The notes under the pieces were generated by a model that saw nothing but the letters and a program-made list of their open reading frames with translations, had not been told where the DNA came from and ran no database searches. A DNA stretch of 62,683 nt, filler included. It is 13 parts of 13 records of this genome, joined end to end, with 100 filler letters (N's around TTAATTAATTAA, not from the genome) between each part and the next. Parts side by side here need not be neighbours in the genome. Positions count along the whole stretch, not along the records: positions 47,591 to 53,234 come from SRR15195285_4244; 12 more parts are not named here. The stretch is one strand, 5' to 3'. The number at the start of each line of letters is the position of its first letter. Position 1 is the first letter of the stretch. This document shows, piece by piece, positions 36,027 through 57,145 of the stretch. Both the position numbers and the translations under genes were made by a program.

Positions 36027-39000
36027 TCACTTTTTCTTCGCGTTCTTCGCCTTCTTCCCCTTCTTCTTCTTCCCCTTCGTCTTGCCAGCATCCGAGCGGT
36101 TGCTAGCCGTTTTCGGTCCGCCTTCGGCACCATCCGGATCGGATGCTGTCGCCTTGGATTTGCTGCTTACTTTGGACTGTGCTTCAGTGACCAGCAATCG
36201 CTGCTCCTCATCCAGAAGGCTCCACCAGACAGCGAACTCATCCATGCTGATGTCACCACTCCCGTCCGTATCCATGTCTGCTTGCGACGCGGAGATTTGT
36301 TTCTTGGTCGCCTTGCGACCGAGTCTCGTGAGCAACACCTTCAGCTCGCGCGCATCGAGGCCACCGCTCCCATCCTTGTCTATCTCCTGAAAGACCTTGC
36401 GCCCCGCCTCCTCTTGCGCAGCCCGTTGTTGCGCATCTTCGATCGCCTTAGCTTTCGCTGCCACAGCGCCTGCCAGGGCCGCCTGTGCTTGCCTTTCCCA
36501 TTCAGCGAAGTCGTTCACAATTGCCCCGTGTCCGCCCTCCACCCATTGCGCGAAAGTCGTCCTGTTATACTGCCGCAGGCTTTCGTATGCGATGAGGTCC
36601 ATCAAGCCCATTCGCTCGTCCAGAAGATCCTCGCGCACAATGCGCATCTCCCCAACCTCGCTAGGTGATACAAACTCACCGCCGCCACCGCCAACCTGAT
36701 TCGAAAGGCACATGCAGTGGAAAGGTGTACTTCTCAGAGTGGATGTAGACAGCGTTATCAAAATGGCTGGTAAGCTGGGGCCCAGAGGGAGGCACTCACC
36801 CAGTTAAGCTTGACCTGGGCTGGGGCAATCATGCGGACCTCACCCCAGCGACTATCGTGCCTTGTCTGCGTCAACACACCCACGGTTAACGTGTGGCTCG
36901 TGTATGCACCCTTTCGCACCACGTAGCCACTTGTTGCAAGCTGATTATTCAGGTCCTGGACGTTCACTCGTGATCGCTTCGCGCGAGTGCGGAGTTCTAG
37001 AACAGTCAGATCGGCGTCAATCTGCAAAGCAGAAACCAGAAAATAAGTTTGCCGCGAGCAATCAGCCGACTGCATGAACTACACGCCACCGGGTGAGCAT
37101 GCATCGTACCAACTCCTGAAGCATCTCCTGCCGGACTGCATTGCGAGTAGACTCCTCGACAACGGTACCACGCGCCGCCATTTGCGACAGCAGGGACAGC
37201 CCGTCCAATCCCCCACTATGATAGTCAGAGTACTCAAGCTCGCGACGTAGACCATTCTTCTCGACCGATGGCAACCGGTGCGCTACGTTGGAGTCGACAT
37301 CATGGCACGTCTGACAGAGCAGCTCAACTGGGGTAAAACCAAGGCTATCAGTCTGCAACAGAGCAATGTAATCATCGTCCTGCCACGACTCGGTCACGAC
37401 TCTCAACATGGTGCCGTTCACTGCACTCTGTTTGCACAGAGCATGCAGTGGGCTGCCCTCGTGCCCTCGCATCCTCCACACAGCAGGCGGAATCACATCC
37501 GCCAACGCTTGCAAAACCGACAATTCAATATCCGAGTTTGCGCAAAGACTGTGCAATGGTGTTTCGCCAAAGCTATTGCGTTGCAACCATGCGCTCACAC
37601 CAAGCGCACCAGCAGCCTCGCGGAGCAGGTCACCACGGTTTGTGCATGCAGCACTGCATGAACCGCACCAATGGTGAAGCAGTGATCCTAAGCTTGGTAT
37701 AACTATGAGGCCAAGGCGCAGAGAAAGCTTGGTCAGTCCGATTCGAAAAACAAAACTGACACGATAGGTAGGGCCGTGCTATCGCACCTTGAAAGAATGT
37801 TGCTGATGCCCGCGCAACGCGTAGCCGCCCACGCAATTCATCCACACTCATTGACTCGTTATCAAAACGAGAACACCAGAGAGCACGGACCTCCAGATCA
37901 CCCCTGGCCAACAAAAATTCTTGCTCAGATTGCAGAGCAGGGGCCAAACAGTATAGAAGGAACAACGCACCACCAGCACCCAACCGCAAGAATATCAGCT
38001 CTTAGTTTCACTCCCAGTTTGTTTGATGCTGCAGTCAGCTCCAGCAGGTCACAGAAGCTAAAAGTGGAGTCGCGCGATCTGGTGTTCTTCACTGCGGCGC
38101 AGATCTGTTCTTTCACGCTCCCCTCGTCATCGCCATCGCTACCGCCATGCTCATCAGCACTGCATGCTAATTTCCATAGCTCGCAAACTCCGTTATCTTC
38201 GTTAGACAGCCCCAGTTGATGCCGGAGCATCGCAGCACTGTCTGCGAGCCCGCACCCTGACAAGATGTGTTCGAGTGTGCTTGGGCAGAACTCCTTCAGT
38301 TGTGGGAGTGCGGCGGGCAACCTCAATCTCGCAACTGCCAAAGCAAATGCAGCTTCTTTCGGTGCCTCAAATGCCAGTGCTTCTAGCATCGCAAGGAAAG
38401 CTTCTGCGTCCATGTTACGAATGTCGGACAGAGATGGAGATTCTCCTGGGTGCAGGTAAATAAACCTAGAAATGATAGCCATGTGTTGTGGCTCGAGCCC
38501 TGCAGAGTGTACGGTATAGAGCAACCCAACCGCAGTGAATACATCACGGAGACAAGTCAACTTGATCAGGCTCACATGTAATCGAAGTAGAAACCAGTGA
38601 CACGCACCATTTTCCTCTGCAAATTTCTGAAGCTCCATCGTATCATCTGCGCTTTGTAGTCGTGTTGGTTCCTCCGCGCCATATACACGGCTCCACGCCG
38701 AACGCTCCAACGGAGAAAGTCCTCTCGCGGCAGTTACACCGGCTGTCGCCTGCGATAGTAGCACAGGAAGCTCGATGTCCTTTGTTCCTGCAAGTCTCTT
38801 CGCCGTTTCTAGCTCCACTGCGGCCTGTGGAAACTCACCGGCATCTAGCCGGGCGACCGCGCGCGCCTTTGCCGCCGCAGCTGTGGCTAAGTCGCCTGTA
38901 AGCACCAAGGGCCCCATGCGCGGCCAGTCATCGCCGCGCTGCTGTACTGTCGGCAAATTGGGTTTGCGCGCCCGCTCTCGCCATGGGACATGCCGCTGCG

Positions 39001-46786: not shown

Positions 46787-47719
46787 CCCCGAGCGTCCGC
46801 TGGCTGGCCTGACTCGCTTGAGAGCACTCACCACCAGGCCACCAGCACTCTATCCAGCACTAGCAACGGTAGCAGCAGCACAGGCACTCTATCAGCGGCA
46901 GCAGGAGCAGCAGCAGCAGGAGGAGGAGGACGGCGTTCTCGTCGGACGCTCCGCAGGCTCCGTCATACAATGACACCGGTCTGCCTACTAGCTAGTATAA
47001 TATTCTAATATACTCGCTACTGGCCAGTGCGTCGTCCTCCGCCGTTGAACTCGGCGAATTGCTTGTATTACGTATTGATTCGTACGTCCGGCCGCACAGG
47101 CACATCGGACACCCGACCTGTGGCGGTGCACTGGGTGCAGAGATCAGCATCAGGACGGGGAGACGGAAGGGGCACGCGAGGCGTTCTCCTGACGCGCTGA
47201 CGGACGAGCATGCAGTCGACGGATTTCGCGGCCGTTGGTGAGGCCTCTTGCATGGTCGATGTTCCCGCGCGGCGCCTACCTACAGCTACATTTTTTCAAA
47301 AAAAATCCTACTAGTAGCTAGTACGGTGTACGGTTCGCGTGGGTGAGGACCAGAATCAGAATCAAATGGGAAACAAGGAAAAGTGCCAATTTCGCCATTG
47401 AAACAAATTTCGACCAACGACTCGGAGAGGACGAGTCAGGAGGGTCATTGTCTAAAATCAGTCGGAGCAGGAGGAAGAGGCACGAGAATTNNNNNNNNNN
47501 NNNNNNNNNNNNNNNNNNNNNNNNNNNNNNNNNNTTAATTAATTAANNNNNNNNNNNNNNNNNNNNNNNNNNNNNNNNNNNNNNNNNNNNGCACTCCTGC
47601 GGGGGTGCCGTAGCGCGCGCGGATCCGTCCCGCGCGCGCGGCCGGGCGCGCGCGATCAGCGAGGCTCTCCCGTGGCGCATCGCGCCGCCCCGCCCGCGCG
47701 GCGCCAAGGGACGGGGCGG

Positions 47720-49489
47720 ATGTCCCGTGAGGCGTCAGTGCTTGGGGCGTCGCTGCCCTGGGACGTTGAGCCCTCAGCCTCAGCACAGCCTGAGCCTGAG
47801 TCTCAGGTGGAGGCCACACCGCCAGCGCCGCTTGAGCCCAGCCCAGCCAAGAGCGGCGGCGGCTGGCTCGCGAAGTTCTCGCGGCCGTGCGCCGTTTGCC
47901 GAGAGGAGATCCCTGTCCGTTTCCGTCGTCCTTTACCATCTCGTACTTATTGCACCAAACTGCAATCGAACATGCTGAAAACATCTAGATTTAACTACAT
48001 GATTGTGCTGGGACAGGTCGGGGAGAGCATTTTCCCGACGGATGAGTCGGCTGGTGGTGGATGGGCGCACGTGCGCTGTATGTCATCGGACGGGGAGGAG
48101 CTGGTGCCGCCCATGTGCAAGTACTTTGTGCGGCTGGGACGCTGCGCCTACGGGGATCGCTGCCTGTATCGGCACACCGGGAGCGAGGCGGAGCTGGCAG
48201 CTGCCGCGGTGCGGCGACGGCGCGGCACTGGGAGTGGCGGGAGTGGGCGCGCCGCCATCTCCAACAGCGCTAAGGCCTCGGTGTTCCGGCGCTGGCTGAT
48301 TGATACTTTTGGCCGGGCAAGGCTGCGGTCTGGGGTCGTCTTGGATGTTGCTGGTGGCAACGGCGCACTCGCATACGAGCTCGAGAACCTCAACGACATT
48401 CGGTGCGCTGTGATTGACCCGAGACCACTGCGGCTCAACAAGTTTGCAAAGCGCCAGCACTACGCACTGTTCTCTACCAACCCAGCGTTTCAGCGCTACA
48501 TTGACGTGCCGGACTATGCGCACCGCGCGCCGCTGCGCCCAGCGCAGCTCAGGGTGTTCCTCGATCAGCAACTGATCTCTTGGGCACTGCAGCAGCCATG
48601 TCAACTCAGTTCGCAGCGACGGGGCGAGGAGACGGACACACCCTTCAGCTGGGGGGCTGCGTTGGAGCGGGGCCGATCCGTTAGCTGGACGGCCCGTGGG
48701 CTGCAGTTGAGTGCGGCGGCTGGCGCCACCAACAGCCGTAGCGAAGGCGGCGGCATCGCAAGCACTGGGACAGTGCTTGGCGGTCGCTACAGCACAGCAG
48801 ATCTTGCGGTTCCGCCGCACGAATTTTTTCGACAGAGCGAATGGGAGGGGCTATTTTCTGACTACGATGTGGATGGTGTTCCGACCACAGACGCCGATGG
48901 TAAGCCACTGCCGAAAAATGCCAGAAAAAAGCTGGCGAAGCGCCATCGCACGTACACCAACAAGTGGAAGCGACTGTCACAGCGGGTGGCAGAGCCTGAT
49001 ACAAACGGCGCTGCGAGCGACCAAACGGATCGAAGTAGTGCCAGTGGCGACGATGGTGGGCCTCCTCGGACACTAGCCCCATCCGGCAAAATCTTTGTTC
49101 CCATGACAGAGAGCGAGTCGGAAGTTTCTCCAGAGGAGGACCCAAACGAAGCGCGGCGTTACCTGGCTGAAGCCAGCAGCGTGGTCGTTGGGCTGCACCC
49201 TGATCAGGCAGCGGAGGCGATCATCGATTTGGCGTTGGCATCCGGCGCAGCATTTGCAGTCGTTCCGTGCTGTGTATACTCTGCCGAGTTTCCACAACGT
49301 AAGCTCAAGCTATCAGATGGCAGCAGCACACTCGTCCGAACATACGACCAGCTTTTGGAGTATCTCAAAGCCAAGGCAGAGACGAGCAGTGGCAATAGAA
49401 TGGAGAGGGTGATTGAGGAGGCCACGCTAGACTTCGAAGGGCTTAACCGAGTGATCTACAGCCACGCAGCCCGCGATGGTGGTAGCTAG
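47720..49489 (+). CDS. CCCH zinc-finger SAM-dependent methyltransferase (Trm44-like fold); probable intron 47915-48016
   Basis: CKYFVRLGRCAYGDRCLYRH (CCCH); VLDVAGGNGAL (SAM motif I), VIDPR and VVGLHPDQAAEAIID...FAVVPCCVY. Confidence 0.82.
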   Translation: MSREASVLGASLPWDVEPSASAQPEPESQVEATPPAPLEPSPAKSGGGWLAKFSRPCAVCREEIPVRFRRPLPSRTYCTKLQSNMLKTSRFNYMIVLGQVGESIFPTDESAGGGWAHVRCMSSDGEELVPPMCKYFVRLGRCAYGDRCLYRHTGSEAELAAAAVRRRRGTGSGGSGRAAISNSAKASVFRRWLIDTFGRARLRSGVVLDVAGGNGALAYELENLNDIRCAVIDPRPLRLNKFAKRQHYALFSTNPAFQRYIDVPDYAHRAPLRPAQLRVFLDQQLISWALQQPCQLSSQRRGEETDTPFSWGAALERGRSVSWTARGLQLSAAAGATNSRSEGGGIASTGTVLGGRYSTADLAVPPHEFFRQSEWEGLFSDYDVDGVPTTDADGKPLPKNARKKLAKRHRTYTNKWKRLSQRVAEPDTNGAASDQTDRSSASGDDGGPPRTLAPSGKIFVPMTESESEVSPEEDPNEARRYLAEASSVVVGLHPDQAAEAIIDLALASGAAFAVVPCCVYSAEFPQRKLKLSDGSSTLVRTYDQLLEYLKAKAETSSGNRMERVIEEATLDFEGLNRVIYSHAARDGGS

Positions 49490-49783
49490 GCAGCACTGCG
49501 AGAGAGAAACGGCCAGTTGCGGTAGACCGGATTTCTCGCTGCATTTCTGAGTGGCCGCTATATTTCTCCCGACAACTCTACCTGCAGCCACGCATGCCTA
49601 CCGACCTCGTGCCTGCTTGGAACGCGTGGCTGTGAAGTGTGCACCACACGTACCGGTATCATGTAGTGTTACACAATTCTACTCGTCGTGCCGGTATTTT
49701 CTCTGCCGCTCCTTCTTCTCGTCGTTGCCATCAGCCAAACGTCGAGCGAGTGCGGTGGCAGGGTAACTTAAGATGCCATCTAC

Positions 49784-52700
49784 TTAGGCAGCTGTACCTG
49801 TGAGGATCTCCTTCGCATAATTCATGCAGATCAGCTCGTTCCCCGAGGGCGGAGGAAGAGCTACCTTTGCTGGATCGGCCTCCGGGTCGGCGATATCCTT
49901 CCAATTCTGTGTGTTCACGTCCAGAAATTCAACCAGTTCGGCGAACACAGGAATGTGGTTGGCCATCTTCTGCAAGCAGCCCTTGACGACAAAGTTGCCG
50001 AAACCAATCTGTGACTTTGCGACGTTCGGAAGGTAGACCTCGTCGAAAATATTGTCGCCGATGTCCATGAAGCCGCTTACAGGCAGACCGTTTGCTTTCT
50101 CCTTGGCGACCTGCATCTTAAACTCTGTGCAAACCATACGCGCCCACCTGGAGCATTCGTCCCATGGCCAGGCAGCGTTGGCTATGTCGAGGCCGTGGAG
50201 GATCGCCTCGAGCCAGAATTTTTTGTCCTCAGGATCTTCGACACTAAACGAGGACTTCTCATCGAGCTTTTTCATCTTCACGCCATGGAAGGTCATATCC
50301 GTCTGGATGATGCAGCTAATGATTGTAGACCGCACAAGCTTAAACTCGTCTTTCTCAAGCCCACCGAAAATCTCACAGCCAGGGAGGCGGCTGGTCTCGA
50401 AGCACTTCCTTGCGTGCATCGACTCAAGCAGTGAGGTGTCGTTGTATGTCAAGGCGAGCTCGTCGTAGGAGTTCATGTGGAAGGCATTGTTGACACCATC
50501 GTGGTTAGTGTCATGGCACAATGCCGCTACCAACAATGCAAACTGGTCCATATTTCCGAGGCCCTTGCGGACCTCCGGGCACTTGGACATGGCCCAGTAG
50601 CACCCTTGGAAAACACCGAAGCCGTGCCACATGTTGTGGTATGGGACCTCGTTGTACTGAGAGAAGATTTTTGCCGCGAAGGTGGACACGATCTCCTCCG
50701 TGAGCTTGCAGTTCTGCATGAAACCTCGCTCGTGAAAGACTAGGACGACGCTCCCAACCAGCTGTTCCATCGAGTAGTTCAGGACAGGGAACGACCACTG
50801 CTGCAGCTCTTCGATGGACGGCAGGCTCAGGCCCGCGAGGACGCGAGACGGCGCAGCCGGCTGCAAGTTGTCGATCGAAAACTCAGCCATCACGGTGTTG
50901 CCGCTTGCGCCGGCGAGCGGTGTTGTGGTACTCTGTGGACTTGCAGTGCCGATTGTGATAGCCCTCGTCGACGGCCGAAGTTTTGCAAGCCTGTTGCGCG
51001 ATGCCGCGTCCTGGAACTCGTCGAGCTGCTCATAATCCTCGGCCGCGTAGGCCAGGTTCGTCTTCTCGGCGATCTCGTTGATCATGTACGAGATCTCATC
51101 CAAGAAAATGCGGAGCTGTTTGGCGTCTTTTTTGTCGAAACTCGGGCCATCGACTTTGTTGATGGCCTGTACGACACCAACCACATTCCCGAGCTCAATT
51201 TTCTTCACGCTGTCCTGCCACCACTGCGAGAACTCGTCGAAATCAACCTCGTTGCTGCCGTCTTCGTCCATATCTTGCATAGCCTCATCGAGTTCCTTCC
51301 TCGAGAGCCGCTTCCCAAGCTTCACCGCGAGAGCATTGATCTCATCCCTATCGAGCGAGCCGCCTTTGTCAGTATCCGCGTCTTCGAATACTTTCCGCAG
51401 CTCTACTTCGCTCTTCTGCGTCACCATGCTCTTGGACGGCGCCATGTACTGCACCGCGCTGACGAGCGTGCTCTTGGGCTCAAACCCAGCCGGCGCGTCC
51501 GGGCCAGACGGTTTGAGTGTGTGCGACGAGTCCCAGACTGCGCGCGGGTTCTCGCGGATGGCGTCGGAGCCGACAATGACTTCGTCAGGCGTGGCGGCTA
51601 CCGTCCGGTCCTCCCGCGAGCGCACGTCCTCTTGCGCAACCCGCCCGACGTATCCGCTCTCCAGCTCGATCTGCATGTCTTCTTCGTAGATTTGCGGGTC
51701 TGTATCATCCTCGTATCCGATGGCCTCGACTCCATGCGGGAGCAGCTGCAGTTTCTTGGGCTTGTGCACCATATCACGCATGAAGTACATGGCGACGAGC
51801 TCGGCGTTGAGCATGTTGCGACACGCCTTCACAATTGCACGCGTCGCTGTGTCTTGATCTTTCGAGACTGACCTGTACACGGAAAGCAGCGCCTCTGCCT
51901 GGATTTTGGACTGCTTCTCGGCCTCGGCCTTGGCGCGAAGAGCCTCGTCGGCGCGGGCAAGCTTGCGTGAAATCTCCGCCATCAGCTGCTCCATGTCGAC
52001 GTCTTCGGAGTTCGCTGCCGGCTCCGCGGCTCGTGGGGTGGGGGACTGGCCCCCCGAACCCTCGCCCATCGCCACAACGTGATCTCCGTCGACGAGCACA
52101 TCGCCGAGCGTGTCCACTGGGCTGAGGCTGGCACCGTTGAACTGGGACGGCGGAAATCACGCACCGGGATTAGGGGGAGCGGAGGTCCTGAGAGACGGGC
52201 GGCGCGCGCGGGGGGGAGGGGGGTGAGGGGTGAGGGGAGGCTTAGAGGATGGCACGGACCGAAAGCCCGAAGATGGGCTTGCCAGTGCGCCGCTGGATCT
52301 CCGCCGTCACGTCCGCGACAGTCTGGCGGTGGTCGCACGGGACGATGGCGTGCACGCCACCTGGCGCCGCGACGTTCAGTCGGACTTTCCCCATGTCGAG
52401 CGTCGAATGGAACTCCGGCTCGGCAGCCGGCACCCTTGCACCGCTTGACGAGACGCTCGAGTAGTCGAGCAAGCTCCGGGTCGTGTTCTACAGAGCACGC
52501 GCACCGTACAGCGACCGCTGTGAGCGAGGAGGGAGCGGCGAGAAAGGGGGAGAGGAGAGGGGGGGCACCATCGATGTGGATGGTGCCCCCAACGCTCGTG
52601 AGGGAGCAGCGGCTGGCTCGGGAGACAGCGGGAGGCGGTAGGGGGGGGCTCCTTGCACATCCCGCAGCGTGTGTACGACAGAGACAGACAGACACCCCTC

Positions 52701-53155
52701 GCGCAAAGAAGGAGCGAGAGAATGAGTAAGTGAGGAGGAGAGAGGGAAGAGGAAGGAGGGAGGGAGAGAGGGATGTGCATCTCTCTTTCTTCTCTCTCCG
52801 AATGGGCCTCTCTCTCGCTGGCGCAATGTCATTCGCCCCAAGCTGTACCTTGCCACCCTCCCACCAACCTCCGTGCGCAAAGCGGGCGGGCGACAAGAGC
52901 GAAGTAGAGGGCAACAGCGAAGAGGAACGCGCGCGAGCAAGGCCTATCCTCCCTCCTCCCCCTCTGAATGGCTCCCTCCACCCTCTTCCCGCCGTCCACC
53001 ATGGTGTGCAATGAACGCCACGCTGCTGCTGTTGCTGGGCCCACCTGCACGATGCCCTCGAGCTCCCTGGTGAGCTCCTCGTTCCGTTGCAGCGCGGCGG
53101 TGAGGCGGCTCAGGTTGTGCGAAGCAGCGGCCGGCCTAGTCGCGGACTCAGCCAT
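49784..53155 (-). CDS. Class I cyclic-nucleotide phosphodiesterase: Ubl-like, coiled coil, GAF (with EF-hand insert), PDEase_I; exons 53045-53155, 52260-52487, 49784-52141
   Basis: PYHNMWH, ALCHDTNHDGVNNAF, LESMH, TDM, LHGLDIAN, EFKMQ and SQIGF catalytic motifs. GAF C-terminal VVGVVQAINK...FDKKD. Phase-0 GT-AG introns 52488-53044 and 52142-52259 join the upstream exons in frame. Confidence 0.93.
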
Positions 53156-53722
53156 ACACCACCACGACCACCCCCAGCAGCCCCCAGCCCATTCACCACG
53201 CCAACGCCTTCACGATTCTCACAGTCCCTTTTACNNNNNNNNNNNNNNNNNNNNNNNNNNNNNNNNNNNNNNNNNNNNTTAATTAATTAANNNNNNNNNN
53301 NNNNNNNNNNNNNNNNNNNNNNNNNNNNNNNNNNCCCCTGGCGCCCCTTTCCACCGCGCGGCAGGCCCCGCCCAGCCCCCGGCGTCCCGCTAGCAGCTGT
53401 CCATCGCGGGCGTTGGCGCCATTTGGTGGCGCCAATTTGCTGCGCCCGTCCCTGCGCACCCGGGCTGCACCGCGCGCCGGCCGGCTGACTTGACACTCAC
53501 ACTGAAAATTCCACGGATTCCAATGCTGAATCAGAATGCCGCTGCACCAGTATGCCCTCTATCCTAGATATGCTCCCGGCGGTTGGGCTCGAATTTGAAT
53601 CGTCCTGGTCGTGAAGGTCCTGGTCCTCGACGACGGATGGACGATCGTCGTCATCGAGAACACGCACCACACGCAGCACAGCACAGCCAAGAGCCGTTGT
53701 GAAGCCAGAGAGGCAGCAGCGG

Positions 53723-56700
53723 ATGTCCGGGCGGCGGAAGGGTGACATGGACCCTCGGAGCGCCGCATTGGCACTGGACGTGCTGCATGTAGTGGAGCGT
53801 TGCTTCCTGCCTAGCACAGGTCCGATCCAGGCTCGAGCGCTAAACCAGTCGGGCTTCGAGGCCCTGTGCCGTGAGATGGGTGTAGTGAATGCCGACTGGG
53901 GGGCGAGGCTGTTCGCTGCGATCGACGCCGACAATACGGGCGCGATCGATGCGTTCGAACTGCTCAACGGACTCCGCGTTATGGGCGCGTTGCCGCAGCC
54001 GCAGTCGACCAGTGATGGCACCGACGCGCAGAGACGCCGGCTGGCGTTCCGCATGCTGGACGTAAGTCGTACAGTCGCCGTCCAGCCCGTCCACCGCCAG
54101 CTGTTAGTACACAGCTTCTCCTACCTGATTGATCTCGCTGCTCACACCTGACTGCTTGCACCCCTCGCAGCTAGACCGTGATGGGCGGATCGACCGTGAC
54201 GAGCTACGCGAATTTGTCCGCTCGTTCGCAACTTCAGCGCGAGAGGTGACTGAGGGGTGGGTGGGACAGGTGTGTCATGGCACAAATCTCCGCGCCACTC
54301 CTACTAGTAGTTGTGAGTCTAAGCGCAATACCTGCGTCTGCGCCCGCCCCGTAGTTCGAGGACATCTTTGGTGGATCCGGTGCATGGCGTGAGCAATCGG
54401 AGCTGCGTCATGGTCTGCTAGGCCTGAACGTGCGAACGGAGGAGGCTATCGATGAGCTGTGCGATGTTATTGTTGCGTCAGTGGAGCAAGCAGAGGACAG
54501 TAGGCTAGCGGACGAGGGTGATGATGACCGTGCAGTGGCGGAGATGGGCCAGGCAGGTTTCGATGCGTGGTGCCTGCGTGAAAGTCCAACGCGGCTATGC
54601 ATTGAGGCTGCTTTAGAAGAGCAGGCACGAGCATGGGCTGACTGGATGAGTTTGTCCCAGCGGGAGCGTGAAAGCGGTTCACGCTTACTTCCGAGTCAAC
54701 GTTTCAAAGTGCAGGCTGTCCCAGGCCTAGCAGGCAGGTTGGACCGCCTTGCTGAGCGTGGCATCCAGCCACTGTTTGAATCCTTTGCTGGCTACGGCCA
54801 GATGAGCGAATCAGACTTCCAGCGCTGTCTCGCCCGCCTCGGTGTCACAGCGTCGCATTTGCGTTCCAGACTATTTGCTGTGTTCGGGGACAGCTCGAAC
54901 TTCGTGGACGTGGCGTGAGGCCTCACAGCCTCCCTTTCCCCGTTGCTAACCACACATTCGTTTGTCGAGCACTGACTGGTGATGGCTGCTCACAGCGCGT
55001 TCACAAGAATGGTCCGGGCACTGATGGACGATAACGAATCTGCGCGCCACTATCTGGCCTTCAGGTTATTCGATACGGATGACAACGGCTTCGTGACCGA
55101 GACAGAGGTCGCCGACTTCGTGTCACGGTTTTTCGGAGAAGCCACTGATGCCTCCAATTCCGTGCTAGACCGTTCGCGTCAACTTTTAGGGTCTTCTGCG
55201 ATGCATGTGCATGTGCAGCAAATATCTGGGTCAATCATGGAATCCTACAAGCGTGAAATTCTGAGTGGGATCTTTAACAGTGAACAAGACATCGCTCCAG
55301 GTCCAGGCGGACAGCGTAGGGTGTACCTGGATGAGTTTGCTCAGTGGACGAAGTCTCGCGGCAACCGAATTCGGTGCTATTTTGACAGCTTGGCGAAGCA
55401 TCTGCTGGAGGTGCTCATGTTGACAGGCAGCGGTCAGCTCAATTTTGCCGAGCCAGCGAGCGCATTTGGCACAGACTCACCTGAGGTTCTGCAGCTTGTG
55501 AACTCGTTATCGCAGAAGTCTCAATCGGTACTCGTCTTTTGTGTCCCCAGAATAGAACTTACTCAAATTTGCAAATTCACACTTGAACGTGTACTTGCGC
55601 TCTCGTAGGGTGCAAAGAAGGTATCGACCAATGCTGTTGGGTTGCTTGGCACGTCCAGATTCACGAGGCACAAGGTAGGCTGGCCTGGTTCCAAATTTGC
55701 AACGATGCGTACACTCAAACTGTTTGTGCGTATTATCATGATGGTGTCACAGGTCAAGATGTTGCAAGATCTTTTCACGAATGTCTCACAAGATGGGGTC
55801 ATGGGACCGCCGGAGTGGAGACGATGTCTCACAGCTACCGGTATTCACAACACGTTTGTTGTTGAGCGTCTTTTCGAACTTTTCGACACCACCGGCGACC
55901 GGAGAATGACAGCAAAGGAGTTTACAAGCGGCTTGTCTGCACTAGTCCATGATTCAGACCCTGGCAGCGAAGCAGCTGCTTTGAAAGCTCGACGGTTATT
56001 CGCGTTTCGATTCTATAACCAAACAGGTGAACAGTTCTTCGAGCGACAAGACTGCGTGAGCTTTCTGAAGAGCTGGGTTGTTTGTGCCAGAGATGCAGTA
56101 AGACAGGCCAACGAGCATCTACTGAACGTCTACGGCGTCGAACAAATTGATCTCGTGACCATCCAGTCACCAGTGCAAGGGGCCGCACGGTCAGCAGTAA
56201 CTGATTTATACGACCGGGTGTATGAGCAGCTCGATGAATACTGTTTGGACGTGTGGCGTGAATATGCTGTGCAGAAAGGGGAGCGCATGACCGAAGATGA
56301 ATTTGTGACACTCACAGTGGTTGCCCCGCAGATGTTCGAATGGCTCAACGAGCTCGGTATGACGTTAGGACGTGAGCTGGAAAAGTTGCGAGATACGAAT
56401 TTCGAAAAGGCTTCCGCGACCACGGTGTCAGAAGGCACTGAACTGAGTGTCATTCGAATCAAGAAATCCTTCGCAGCCTCGGCGCATAATGGGGTGATGG
56501 ACCAGCCAGCATTCAAACGCTGCGTCCGAGGTCTGCTTGGAATGGACGCTCCTGGTTTTGCAGCTGCGTTATTTCGAGCAATCGACGTTAACAAGAACGG
56601 TTTTTTGAGCCAGGACGAGTTCGTGGACGCATTCACAACAATTTTGCGCGGGACTGTAGCTCAAAAAGCCGGTATTGCATTTCGTATCCACGACGTACGT

Positions 56701-56953
56701 GGTGCGGGCTACTTGGAGCCGAAGAGCCTGCGGTCGTGCTTTACTACATGGCTAGAGCCATCAATGAACAAAGTGGACGTTCTCACTTCTTCACTTGACG
56801 AGTGGATGTTTGGTCGAGTGGATGCTTCTGGAGCGCGCAAGGGTGCGCTTCGGTGTTTTGACGCGGCAGGACGCTTGCGCAACGCGGACATCCCATCGAC
56901 AATACGCAAAGCCAGCGCAAGAGAGGTTTCGATGATGGCAGATGCGCTAGTCG
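53723..56953 (+). CDS. Multi-EF-hand protein built from at least 4 tandem calcineurin-B/neuronal-calcium-sensor-like modules; multi-exon, 3' partial
   Basis: Repeating RLFxxxD-(EF loop)...LAFRxxD-(EF loop) units: DADNTGAIDAFE, DRDGRIDRDE, DTDDNGFVTETE, DTTGDRRMTAKE, DVNKNGFLSQDE; five canonical introns keep the frame. Confidence 0.85.
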
Positions 56954-57145
56954 NNNNNNNNNNNNNNNNNNNNNNNNNNNNNNNNNNNNNNNNNNNNTTA
57001 ATTAATTAANNNNNNNNNNNNNNNNNNNNNNNNNNNNNNNNNNNNNNNNNNNNCTGCTGCGGGCCGCTGCTGCGCTGTCGTGCTGTGCCCCCGGCGGTGC
57101 GGCGCTGGGCTGCTCGGGTGGGTGGGTCGGCGGTGTGCGGACTGG

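Follow-up and report, generated by a model that had tools for sequence, protein, structure and literature searches.

A predicted class I phosphodiesterase with an EF-hand pair nested in a probable, strongly diverged GAF domain

Cross-talk between Ca2+ and cyclic nucleotides usually runs through separate proteins, as with calmodulin and phosphodiesterase (PDE) 1 or GCAPs and guanylyl cyclase. In PDE1, free calmodulin is bound in trans on the N-terminal helices, and the enzyme is not known to possess a GAF domain or EF-hands of its own. In the CDPKs of plants and apicomplexans, the kinase is followed in tandem by a domain of four EF-hands whose binding partner is an autoinhibitory junction helix. 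For the PDEs that are regulated through GAF domains, PMC6392808 gives the strand order 3-2-1-6-5-4 for the PDE6 GAF sheet, describes the long helices LH1 and LH2, reports that the H-loop at the catalytic site of PDE2A opens upon activation, and indicates that the relay probably passes through the last strand, closing helix and linker helix. Here we describe a gene on the minus strand of a 62,683-nucleotide stretch of DNA (the window, meaning that whole stretch) that encodes a predicted class I PDE in which an EF-hand pair very probably lies inside a GAF domain of the same chain.

An initial annotation of the window had proposed that an EF-hand pair interrupts the GAF domain upstream of the PDE catalytic domain, and this arrangement was borne out by predicted folds, by profile comparison with controls and by the layout of relatives. 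The gene contains a minus-strand frame that is free of stops from 52156 to 49787 and ends at the stop codon 49784-49786, with 790 codons from stop to stop. Residues are numbered in this open reading frame (ORF, the 49784..52156 frame); adding 108 gives full-length numbering. All of the sequence strings quoted in the annotation were found in the ORF translation where it had placed them. The parts of the protein that concern the regulatory and catalytic regions are as follows:

51851..51994, minus strand: long helix ahead of the GAF domain (ORF 55-102; helix 2-43, then 47-62, in AlphaFold model 1)
51446..51850, minus strand: N-terminal part of the GAF domain (ORF 103-237), from helix alpha1 through the next-to-last strand, KSTLVSAVQY
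Starting at 51850, minus strand: TATRAIVK, motif of the GAF N-terminal part
51466-51446, minus strand: LVSAVQY, motif of the GAF N-terminal part
51191..51445, minus strand: inserted EF-hand pair with its two connectors (ORF 238-322, about 85 residues)
51376-51341, minus strand: EF loop 1, DTDKGGSLDRDE, located in the ORF translation
51268-51233, minus strand: EF loop 2, DEDGSNEVDFDE, located in the ORF translation
51196-51170, minus strand: ELGNVVGVV, region of the last GAF strand
51041..51190, minus strand: C-terminal part of the GAF domain (ORF 323-372), with the last strand VVGVVQAINK, the NK-x5-F-x3-D motif and the closing helix
51163-51137, minus strand: INKVDGPSF, motif of the GAF C-terminal part
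50840..51040, minus strand: linker (ORF 373-439), helical at first, then poorly conserved
49877..50839, minus strand: predicted class I PDE catalytic domain (ORF 440-760), including YHNMWH and HDTNHDG
49787..49876, minus strand: C-terminal tail with the conserved end LPPPSGNEL-x-CMNYA-x-x-ILTG, defined from alignments

The protein is a predicted class I 3',5'-cyclic nucleotide phosphodiesterase. Pfam PDEase_I (PF00233) matched ORF 506-743 with an E value of 5.3e-61 and 206.8 bits (cut-off 24.8), covering positions 1-236 of the 238 in the profile, and the catalytic motifs are intact: YHNMWH at ORF 506-511, HDTNHDG at 548-554, and AKSQIGF, which contains the SQIGF glutamine. We take the first two to be the metal-binding His/Asp motifs and the glutamine to be that of the purine clamp. 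A total of 527 sequences in the Protein Data Bank (PDB) matched at E<=0.1. The best was 5vyd_A (1.4e-52); 5vyd and 7d7p, at about 1e-52, were followed by PDE9A (1e-37) and PDE5 (4e-35), and PDE1B was weaker (1.4e-28). The entries 5vyd and 7d7p represent the PDE domain of a choanoflagellate rhodopsin-PDE, and this presumed kinship points only weakly to cGMP as the substrate. In the tail, the last ~20 residues equal the catalytic core in their degree of conservation within the family, and they matched no known motif.

The inserted segment was recognized by Pfam EF-hand_7 (PF13499) at ORF 251-313, corresponding to window positions 51406-51218 (E 5.1e-10, 40.0 bits against a cut-off of 30), and EF-hand_1 matched it in two stretches (32.5 bits against 25.4). 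Two AlphaFold models were examined: model 1, of ORF 55-395, was built from an 8-sequence alignment (mean pLDDT 61.6, pTM 0.51, 102 residues below 50), and model 2, of ORF 95-372, from an 11-sequence alignment (mean pLDDT 63.9, pTM 0.51, 74 residues below 50). In both models the four EF helices were placed with pLDDT values of ~80-90. The insert matched calmodulin-lobe structures with Z scores up to 11.9 and root-mean-square deviations of 1.2-2 Å over 65-77 residues, and its structural matches included the lobes of calmodulin, troponin C and parvalbumin. Wherever a loop is complete in the family, Asp1, Asp3 and Glu12 are kept in both loops; in the window protein the two Glu12 residues are E272 and E308 (ORF numbering), and the last residues of the insert are WW. 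The pair is predicted from these models to be a calmodulin-lobe-like sensor with plausible Ca2+ loops. Where the annotation spoke of two canonical EF loops at about 51211-51410, the loops and the range were right, and the word canonical was slightly generous in view of Gly5 in loop 1 and Asn6 in loop 2. The insert takes the place of the short hairpin that, in uninterrupted relatives, joins the final two strands of the GAF domain, named beta5 and beta6 in PDE6. Its entry connector is ~12 residues long and its exit connector ~4 residues, model-2 helix 212-226 passing into strand 231-240.

Fold comparison, profile comparison and a sub-threshold match in a relative make it very probable that the two flanks of the insert form one divergent GAF domain. 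In both models the elements came in a GAF-like order. A helix and a strand led into a stretch that was poorly modelled; short strands and helices followed, then a long strand, the four EF helices, another long strand and a long closing helix (strand 231-240 and helix 248-277 in model 2). In model 1 the linker continued as a helix to about ORF 392 (model residues 330-338), with low pLDDT there. As the annotation had read it, the GAF domain resumes behind the insert with its last strand and an NK-x5-F-x3-D motif, seen at 51041..51190, where VVGVVQAINK and then VDGPSFDKKD lie at ~51184-51125. This NKFDE-type motif is partial, consisting of N333, K334, F340 and D344, followed by Ala instead of Glu. 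One GAF-like region, not the tandem GAF-A/GAF-B pair, was found between the catalytic domain and a ubiquitin-like domain nearer the N-terminus. A homodimer prediction for ORF 55-395, in which the tool made no use of the alignment, gave a score of 0.00 that speaks neither for nor against a dimer.

We compared both models with 48,161 PDB representatives by VIA-align and considered the best 50 rows for each. Rows that ran from the first to the last helix across both flanks numbered 13 of 50 for model 1 and 31 of 50 for model 2. At least 21 of the 31 model-2 rows were titled as GAF domains, PDE2A/5/6 regulatory regions, phytochromes or cyanobacteriochromes; the rest (fRMsr enzymes, an HD-GYP N-domain, 1vhm, 3hcy, 3oov and a radial-spoke chain) we take to be GAF folds as well. 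AlphaFold modelling had been suggested with the annotation as a check for one GAF domain across the flanks, and in the two models every structural match that spanned both flanks was a GAF fold, with Z scores of 9.3-11.0 and alignments of 125-184 residues that took in as many as 132 of the 140 residues of a target. Examples are 3trc_A (Z 10.8, 137/168 residues), 4ynr_A (Z 10.6, 132/140) and, among PDE-type matches, PDE2A 3ibj_B (Z 10.5, 21% identity) and PDE6 3jab_B (Z 10.4, 22%). The other 19 model-2 rows were confined to residues 148-278 and the model-1 rows that did not span the flanks to residues 176-280, nearly all of them titled as EF-hand proteins or calcium sensors. The long helix at 51851..51994 is placed like LH1, which precedes GAF-B in PDE2/5/6, and VIA-align aligned PDE2A 3ibj_B and PDE5A 3mf0_A from residue 1 of model 1.

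Furthermore, we used hhalign to compare the family profile, from which the EF columns had been removed, with the GAF domain of P0223, a relative whose GAF is Pfam-certified (residues 162-311, E 8e-28; residues 150-345 served as the target). The two aligned colinearly across the junction over 108 columns, at a probability of 94.9% and an E value of 4.7e-8. The N-flank alone matched the front of the P0223 GAF (probability 81%, E 1.2e-5), and the C-flank alone matched the end of the other P0223 GAF, GAF-A (probability 90%, E 1.5e-6). As controls, 80 random segments of unrelated proteins were aligned; none reached a probability of 50, and their best score was 18.4 compared with 54.4 for the true alignment. 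Reversing the target brought the score to 11.4, and 20 shuffles gave at most 16.5. In the relative P0170, Pfam GAF_2 matched the C-flank below threshold (E 0.0062, 17.2 bits against 28.6, profile positions 100-133 of 136), beginning 9 residues behind the EF pair, and GAF reached 13.5 bits against 22.4. When EF families were skipped among language-model neighbours, GAF clusters occupied all five of the five best rows (0.86), a result that serves as a lead only.

Relatives were collected by word-indexed searches of 5.8 billion proteins, an exhaustive search of representatives and a profile search. The profile search of the 5.8-billion-protein set scored the 8000 candidates with the most words in common and missed the known members P0002-P0005, and the member count is a lower bound. 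The query of the representative search included the EF pair; EF-hand proteins filled most of its best 150 rows, and distant flank-only relatives may be hidden there. The nested layout was complete in P0003, P0004, P0005, P0170 and P0058 and partial in the shortened P0022, P0221 and P0060. Over the GAF-EF region, identity to the window protein in a MAFFT alignment was 90% for P0003, 81% for P0005, 72% for P0004, 55% for P0022, 43% for P0170 (59% in its PDE domain), 38% for P0221/P0114 and 37% for P0058; P0058, P0221/P0114, P0022 and P0060 are fragments. A search for the same architecture elsewhere, as the annotation had advised, thus found it in relatives down to ~37% identity. None of the relatives bears a functional name, all being unnamed or called hypothetical protein. 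One member of the 90% cluster is labelled by its source, EukProt, as coming from a picozoan single-cell assembly, and the sequencing runs that contain the stretch are marine or seawater samples. In a metagenome scan, 1 of the 77 loci listed belonged to the family (L001, 73% identity, probably of the P0004 cluster). By tblastn with the flanks and the PDE domain, the other 76 listed loci were rejected as unrelated EF-hand genes.

Conservation was uneven along the protein. Positions identical to P0170 numbered 46/85 in the insert, 48/136 in the N-flank, 22/50 in the C-flank, 9/54 in the linker and 190/318 in the PDE domain. The insert is therefore better conserved than the GAF flanks, and together with the intact state of the complete loops this indicates that it is under selection and is no accident of assembly.

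A related protein, P0171 (1121 aa, from a metagenome), joins similar modules in another order, with an uninterrupted GAF-like region, an EF pair at residues 663-723 and a PDE domain at 818-1056. The family flanks aligned colinearly to its GAF-like region in hhalign (probability 91.8%, 151 columns), and it is 38% identical to the window protein in the PDE domain and 36% in the EF pair. We built a quick maximum-likelihood tree of catalytic domains with 44 rows, midpoint-rooted and without bootstraps; 12 of 56 sequences had been dropped for having fewer than 230 matched query residues, and the set consisted of protist and metagenome relatives, with no animal references. In this tree the five nested forms made up one group (SH-aLRT 99), with P0171 as its sister (SH-aLRT 99). 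Next came P0183, which has EF and PDE domains and no GAF, and the ordinary GAF-PDE P0223, at 84 and 87. From these predicted architectures, the PDE lineage joins its GAF to EF modules in no fewer than two ways, and in each the EF pair lies near the connection between the GAF and the catalytic domain. The N-terminal region of P0171 is hydrophobic and includes a segment with Arg at every third residue; viewed by eye, it resembles a membrane segment or a voltage-sensor S4 helix. Several other PDE relatives combine Pfam Ion_trans (PF00520) with PDEase_I, which suggests that voltage- or channel-linked PDEs occur in protists.

Several results weigh against the reading that a Ca2+ sensor is embedded in a GAF domain of this enzyme. 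In Pfam (PF01590/PF13185), the ORF gave no GAF match up to an E value of 1, and the flanks taken singly gave none up to 10; the 85-residue insert and the strong divergence would both lower a Pfam GAF score. The confidence of the two AlphaFold models was modest (pLDDT 62-64), the stretch expected to hold GAF strands 2 and 3 was poorly modelled in both, and Z scores of 10-11 fall in the middling range by VIA-align's own guidance. Foldseek of model 1 against the PDB returned only calmodulin-like lobes among its best 50, with no GAF. The family profile matched a second Pfam-certified GAF, that of P0173, weakly (probability 8-29%), as did single sequences (0.3-29% across runs). As to the loops, the window protein carries Gly at position 5 of the first and Asn at position 6 of the second, each seen in 5/7 complete loops, and P0058 and P0170 carry Ser and Gly, respectively, at these two positions; Gly5 and Asn6 may reduce Ca2+ affinity. 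Transcription is also weakly documented. Contigs from four marine RNA libraries, in which DNA carry-over is possible, cover much of 49703-51368, and one is identical to the window over 51076-51368, from EF loop 2 into the last GAF strand and the C-terminal part. These contigs leave 51369-51724 and the greater part of the upstream exons uncovered, none from this gene was reported to contain a splice joint, and one contig, at 52808-52968, lies inside predicted intron 1 (listed below).

The conserved layout probably lets Ca2+ act on the enzyme directly. We propose that the EF pair would bind Ca2+ and open like a calmodulin lobe. Its exit helix is predicted to pass into the last GAF strand through the four-residue connector, and from that strand the signal would reach the catalytic domain by way of the closing helix and the linker, along the same relay as in the GAF-regulated PDEs. 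PDE activity would then become Ca2+-dependent in cis, without free calmodulin. This relay is favored because the exit helix joins the last GAF strand closely and that strand leads to the linker. We put the probability that Ca2+-driven opening of the lobe acts on the relay and sets PDE activity in cis at about 0.5.

An acidic stretch at 51643-51775 on the minus strand (ORF 128-171) occupies the place at which strands 2 and 3 of the GAF domain, with the loop between them, are expected, and it has pLDDT values below 50 in both models (model-2 residues 33-77). According to PMC6392808, the long beta1-beta2 loop of PDE6 GAF-B, in this part of the sheet, contacts the catalytic domain of the partner subunit, and by analogy the acidic stretch may be a second contact element.

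The EF pair might instead have no part in regulating catalysis. It could serve Ca2+-dependent docking or targeting, holding a helix of a second protein or a membrane-bound partner in the manner of a calmodulin lobe, or form a permanently metal-loaded structural insert; in both cases the GAF domain would act mainly as a dimerisation scaffold. Hairpins at domain edges tolerate insertions, so that the site is a permissive one, and the insert resembles a single calmodulin lobe of a kind that typically grips target helices, as its matches to calmodulin and troponin C lobes indicate (Z up to 11.9). Gly at position 5 of loop 1, common in the family, and the further interaction-type module at the N-terminus, the ubiquitin-like domain, would also fit such a role. 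However, with an exit connector of only ~4 residues before the last GAF strand, mechanical coupling is a better fit than a docking module that swings freely, conservation of the insert exceeds that of the GAF flanks and far exceeds that of the linker, and the sister form P0171 likewise has its EF pair between the GAF-like region and the catalytic domain. We consider a docking or structural role unlikely.

The annotation had also suggested a coincidence detector, in which the split GAF would bind cAMP or cGMP, the EF pair would bind Ca2+, and full activation or inhibition would need both inputs. Identity in the structural alignments was highest to GAF domains of the PDE type (PDE2A 21%, PDE6 22%, PDE5 19%), most others reaching 6-15%; the protein contains the NK...F...D motif, and the nearest relatives outside the EF-bearing forms include the ordinary GAF-PDEs P0223 and P0173. 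The family-invariant residues D183, R184, S197, W208, L214, G218, P222 and F225 (ORF numbering) cluster just before the next-to-last strand, a region that in GAF domains binding cyclic nucleotides contains helix alpha4 and the pocket lid. On the other hand, the GAF is too divergent for Pfam; Ala stands where its motif would end in Glu, and P0058 and P0170 follow the motif less closely; both models have their lowest confidence in the stretch that would form the pocket; there is one GAF domain instead of a tandem pair, and many PDE GAF domains bind no nucleotide. Nucleotide binding by this GAF as a second required input is thus doubtful. It is in the same measure improbable that the protein is a natural domain-insertion allosteric switch, in which Ca2+ and a GAF ligand, a cyclic nucleotide, would jointly gate cyclic nucleotide hydrolysis within one fold. 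The last alternative, that the flanks are not one domain or that the EF segment reflects a chimeric assembly or an in-frame intron left unspliced, could draw on the N gaps and linkers of the scaffold, the silence of Pfam and the lack of RNA-library cover at the entry junction of the insert, but it is very improbable and largely refuted by the nested order in independent records from several sources at 37-90% GAF-EF identity to the window (several of them complete proteins on ~3 kb contigs), by the open frame in which the insert is the best-conserved regulatory segment, by the RNA-library contig that runs unchanged from EF loop 2 into the GAF C-terminal part, and by the fold and profile results that place both flanks in one GAF.

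The annotation's authoring model had not known of this architecture, and the literature is consistent with that. A full-text search of about 8.4 million papers and preprints found no description of an EF pair nested in the GAF domain of a PDE, with the limit that subscription journals and supplements may differ; passages of the preprint 10.64898/2026.09.29.755320 and of PMC11971395 contain the relevant words in unrelated contexts only. The separate domains and Ca2+-controlled PDEs are known, and an EF pair nested in a PDE's GAF appears to be undescribed. The finding matters in that a Ca2+ module appears to be wired into the allosteric control domain of GAF-PDEs, at the strand that leads to the relay helix. 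If Ca2+ does control the enzyme, this would add a third mode of class I PDE regulation to those by GAF ligands and by calmodulin acting in trans. It would also be a natural system in which to study the path of a signal from the GAF sheet to the PDE catalytic domain, and would hold a ready-made insertion site for protein engineers in a widely used sensor fold. Were the doubtful two-input switch true, the protein would be a one-chain logic gate for Ca2+ and cyclic nucleotides in marine protists and a natural parallel to engineered insertion-type Ca2+ sensors. The nested form and its tandem sister offer a built-in comparison of two solutions within one lineage. Moreover, a split and strongly diverged GAF domain escapes Pfam, and similar nested regulators may be under-counted in protist proteomes.

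The exons upstream of the ORF were located by tblastn with the relatives P0170 (890 aa) and P0222, whose N-termini are complete. The spliced coding sequence from 53155-53045, 52487-52260 and 52141-49784 is open over 2697 bases and encodes 898 aa; both introns run GT..AG, with lengths of 557 and 118 bases, and the junction peptides match the relatives. The gene model reads:

53045..53155, minus strand: exon 1, 37 codons (MAESATRP...LEGIVQ), with the start codon and a short coiled-coil-like N-terminus, from tblastn with P0222 and P0170
52488..53044, minus strand: predicted intron 1, 557 bases, GT..AG, with boundaries from the sequence; the spliced frame stays open
52260..52487, minus strand: exon 2, 76 codons, first half of the putative ubiquitin-like (beta-grasp) domain, MGKVRLNVAAPGG...
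52142..52259, minus strand: predicted intron 2, 118 bases, TCG|GTCCGT ... CCCAG|TTC
49784..52141, minus strand: exon 3, 785 codons and the stop, from the rest of the ubiquitin-like domain through the C-terminal tail

Exon 1 has its ATG and the splice donor CAG|GTGGGC, and the peptide at the junction with exon 2, IVQ|NTTRSLL, agrees with P0222 and P0170. In tblastn, exon 2 was 77% identical to P0222 and 51% to P0170, and its junction with exon 3, GLS|FNGASL, corresponds to GLAVNGATL in P0222. Exon 3 encodes, in order, the rest of the ubiquitin-like domain, the long helix, the split GAF with the EF pair, the linker, the PDE catalytic domain and the tail. Weak Pfam hints of a beta-grasp fold in the N-terminal domain (OTU1_UBXL, E 0.085; DCX, E 0.13) suggest that the N-terminus may consist of a short coiled coil and a ubiquitin-like domain. 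Public protein models of the same gene (P0002, 763 aa; P0008, 777 aa) start inside exon 3 and are without exons 1-2. P0222 (295 aa) tracks the window frame as far as AELVAMY and then continues in another frame (tblastn frame -2, window 51771-51664), which indicates a frameshift or an error in its source contig. The intron model is predicted from the DNA, and none of the RNA-library contigs shows it or transcription across the entry junction of the insert. The RNA-library contig at 52808-52968 may derive from unspliced RNA, from carried-over DNA or from some unrelated transcript; the region of intron 1 is of low complexity, being purine- and pyrimidine-rich.

Runs of N flank the linker TTAATTAATTAA at 53236-53335, near 47543 and at 56950-57009, and the first of these begins ~80 bases upstream of the exon 1 ATG. 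The window is a chain of contigs, and therefore gene neighbourhood across the N runs is no evidence of linkage. The rest of the window carries eukaryote-type genes, with TPR, ankyrin, tRNA-intron endonuclease, MFS, CCCH finger and NUDIX matches and more EF-hand genes. Just across the N run from the PDE gene lies a multi-exon gene with at least 2 EF-hand matches (53615-56950, plus strand), and another EF-hand ORF is found 13 kb away (36030-36803, minus strand). The convergent neighbour at 47600-49489 on the plus strand matches a CCCH zinc finger (E 5e-7) and, viewed by eye, contains a SAM-methyltransferase-like glycine motif, VLDVAGGNG.

Compared with the described systems, the predicted protein is most like the GAF-regulated PDEs (animal PDE2, 5, 6, 10 and 11; trypanosome PDEB), with which it shares a class I catalytic domain behind a helix-framed GAF and, over both flanks, best fold matches that include the GAF domains of PDE2A, PDE5A and PDE6. 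The animal enzymes have tandem GAF-A/GAF-B domains, whereas the window protein has a single GAF whose last hairpin contains the EF pair; its GAF also lies below Pfam detection and it carries an additional ubiquitin-like N-terminal domain. By PDB sequence matches, its catalytic domain is nearest to 5vyd/7d7p, PDE9 and PDE5, and it is no clear orthologue of any animal GAF-PDE. PDE1 is alike in the predicted outcome, Ca2+ control of cyclic nucleotide breakdown. Membership of the PDE1 family was rejected, with no search aimed at calmodulin-binding helices, since the window protein carries its own EF pair and PDE1B is a more distant catalytic match (1.4e-28) than PDE9 or PDE5. Its sister P0171 has the EF pair in tandem, behind an uninterrupted GAF-like region, while in the window protein the pair is nested. 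The CDPKs are alike in principle, as a Ca2+ sensor wired into the enzyme chain is predicted here too; in contrast to them, the window protein would hold a two-EF-hand lobe inside another regulatory domain of a hydrolase. Finally, engineered Ca2+ indicators, in which calmodulin or troponin C is placed in the barrel of a fluorescent protein, have the same topology, with an EF module between neighbouring beta-strands that puts strain on the host domain when Ca2+ is bound, and they were among the structure matches (8osi and 6xw2 by Foldseek; 9vsj, 8c0t and 3u0k by VIA-align). Those indicators are man-made reporters and were matched through their EF-hand part only, whereas the window protein would be a natural example of this topology, built on the regulator of an enzyme.

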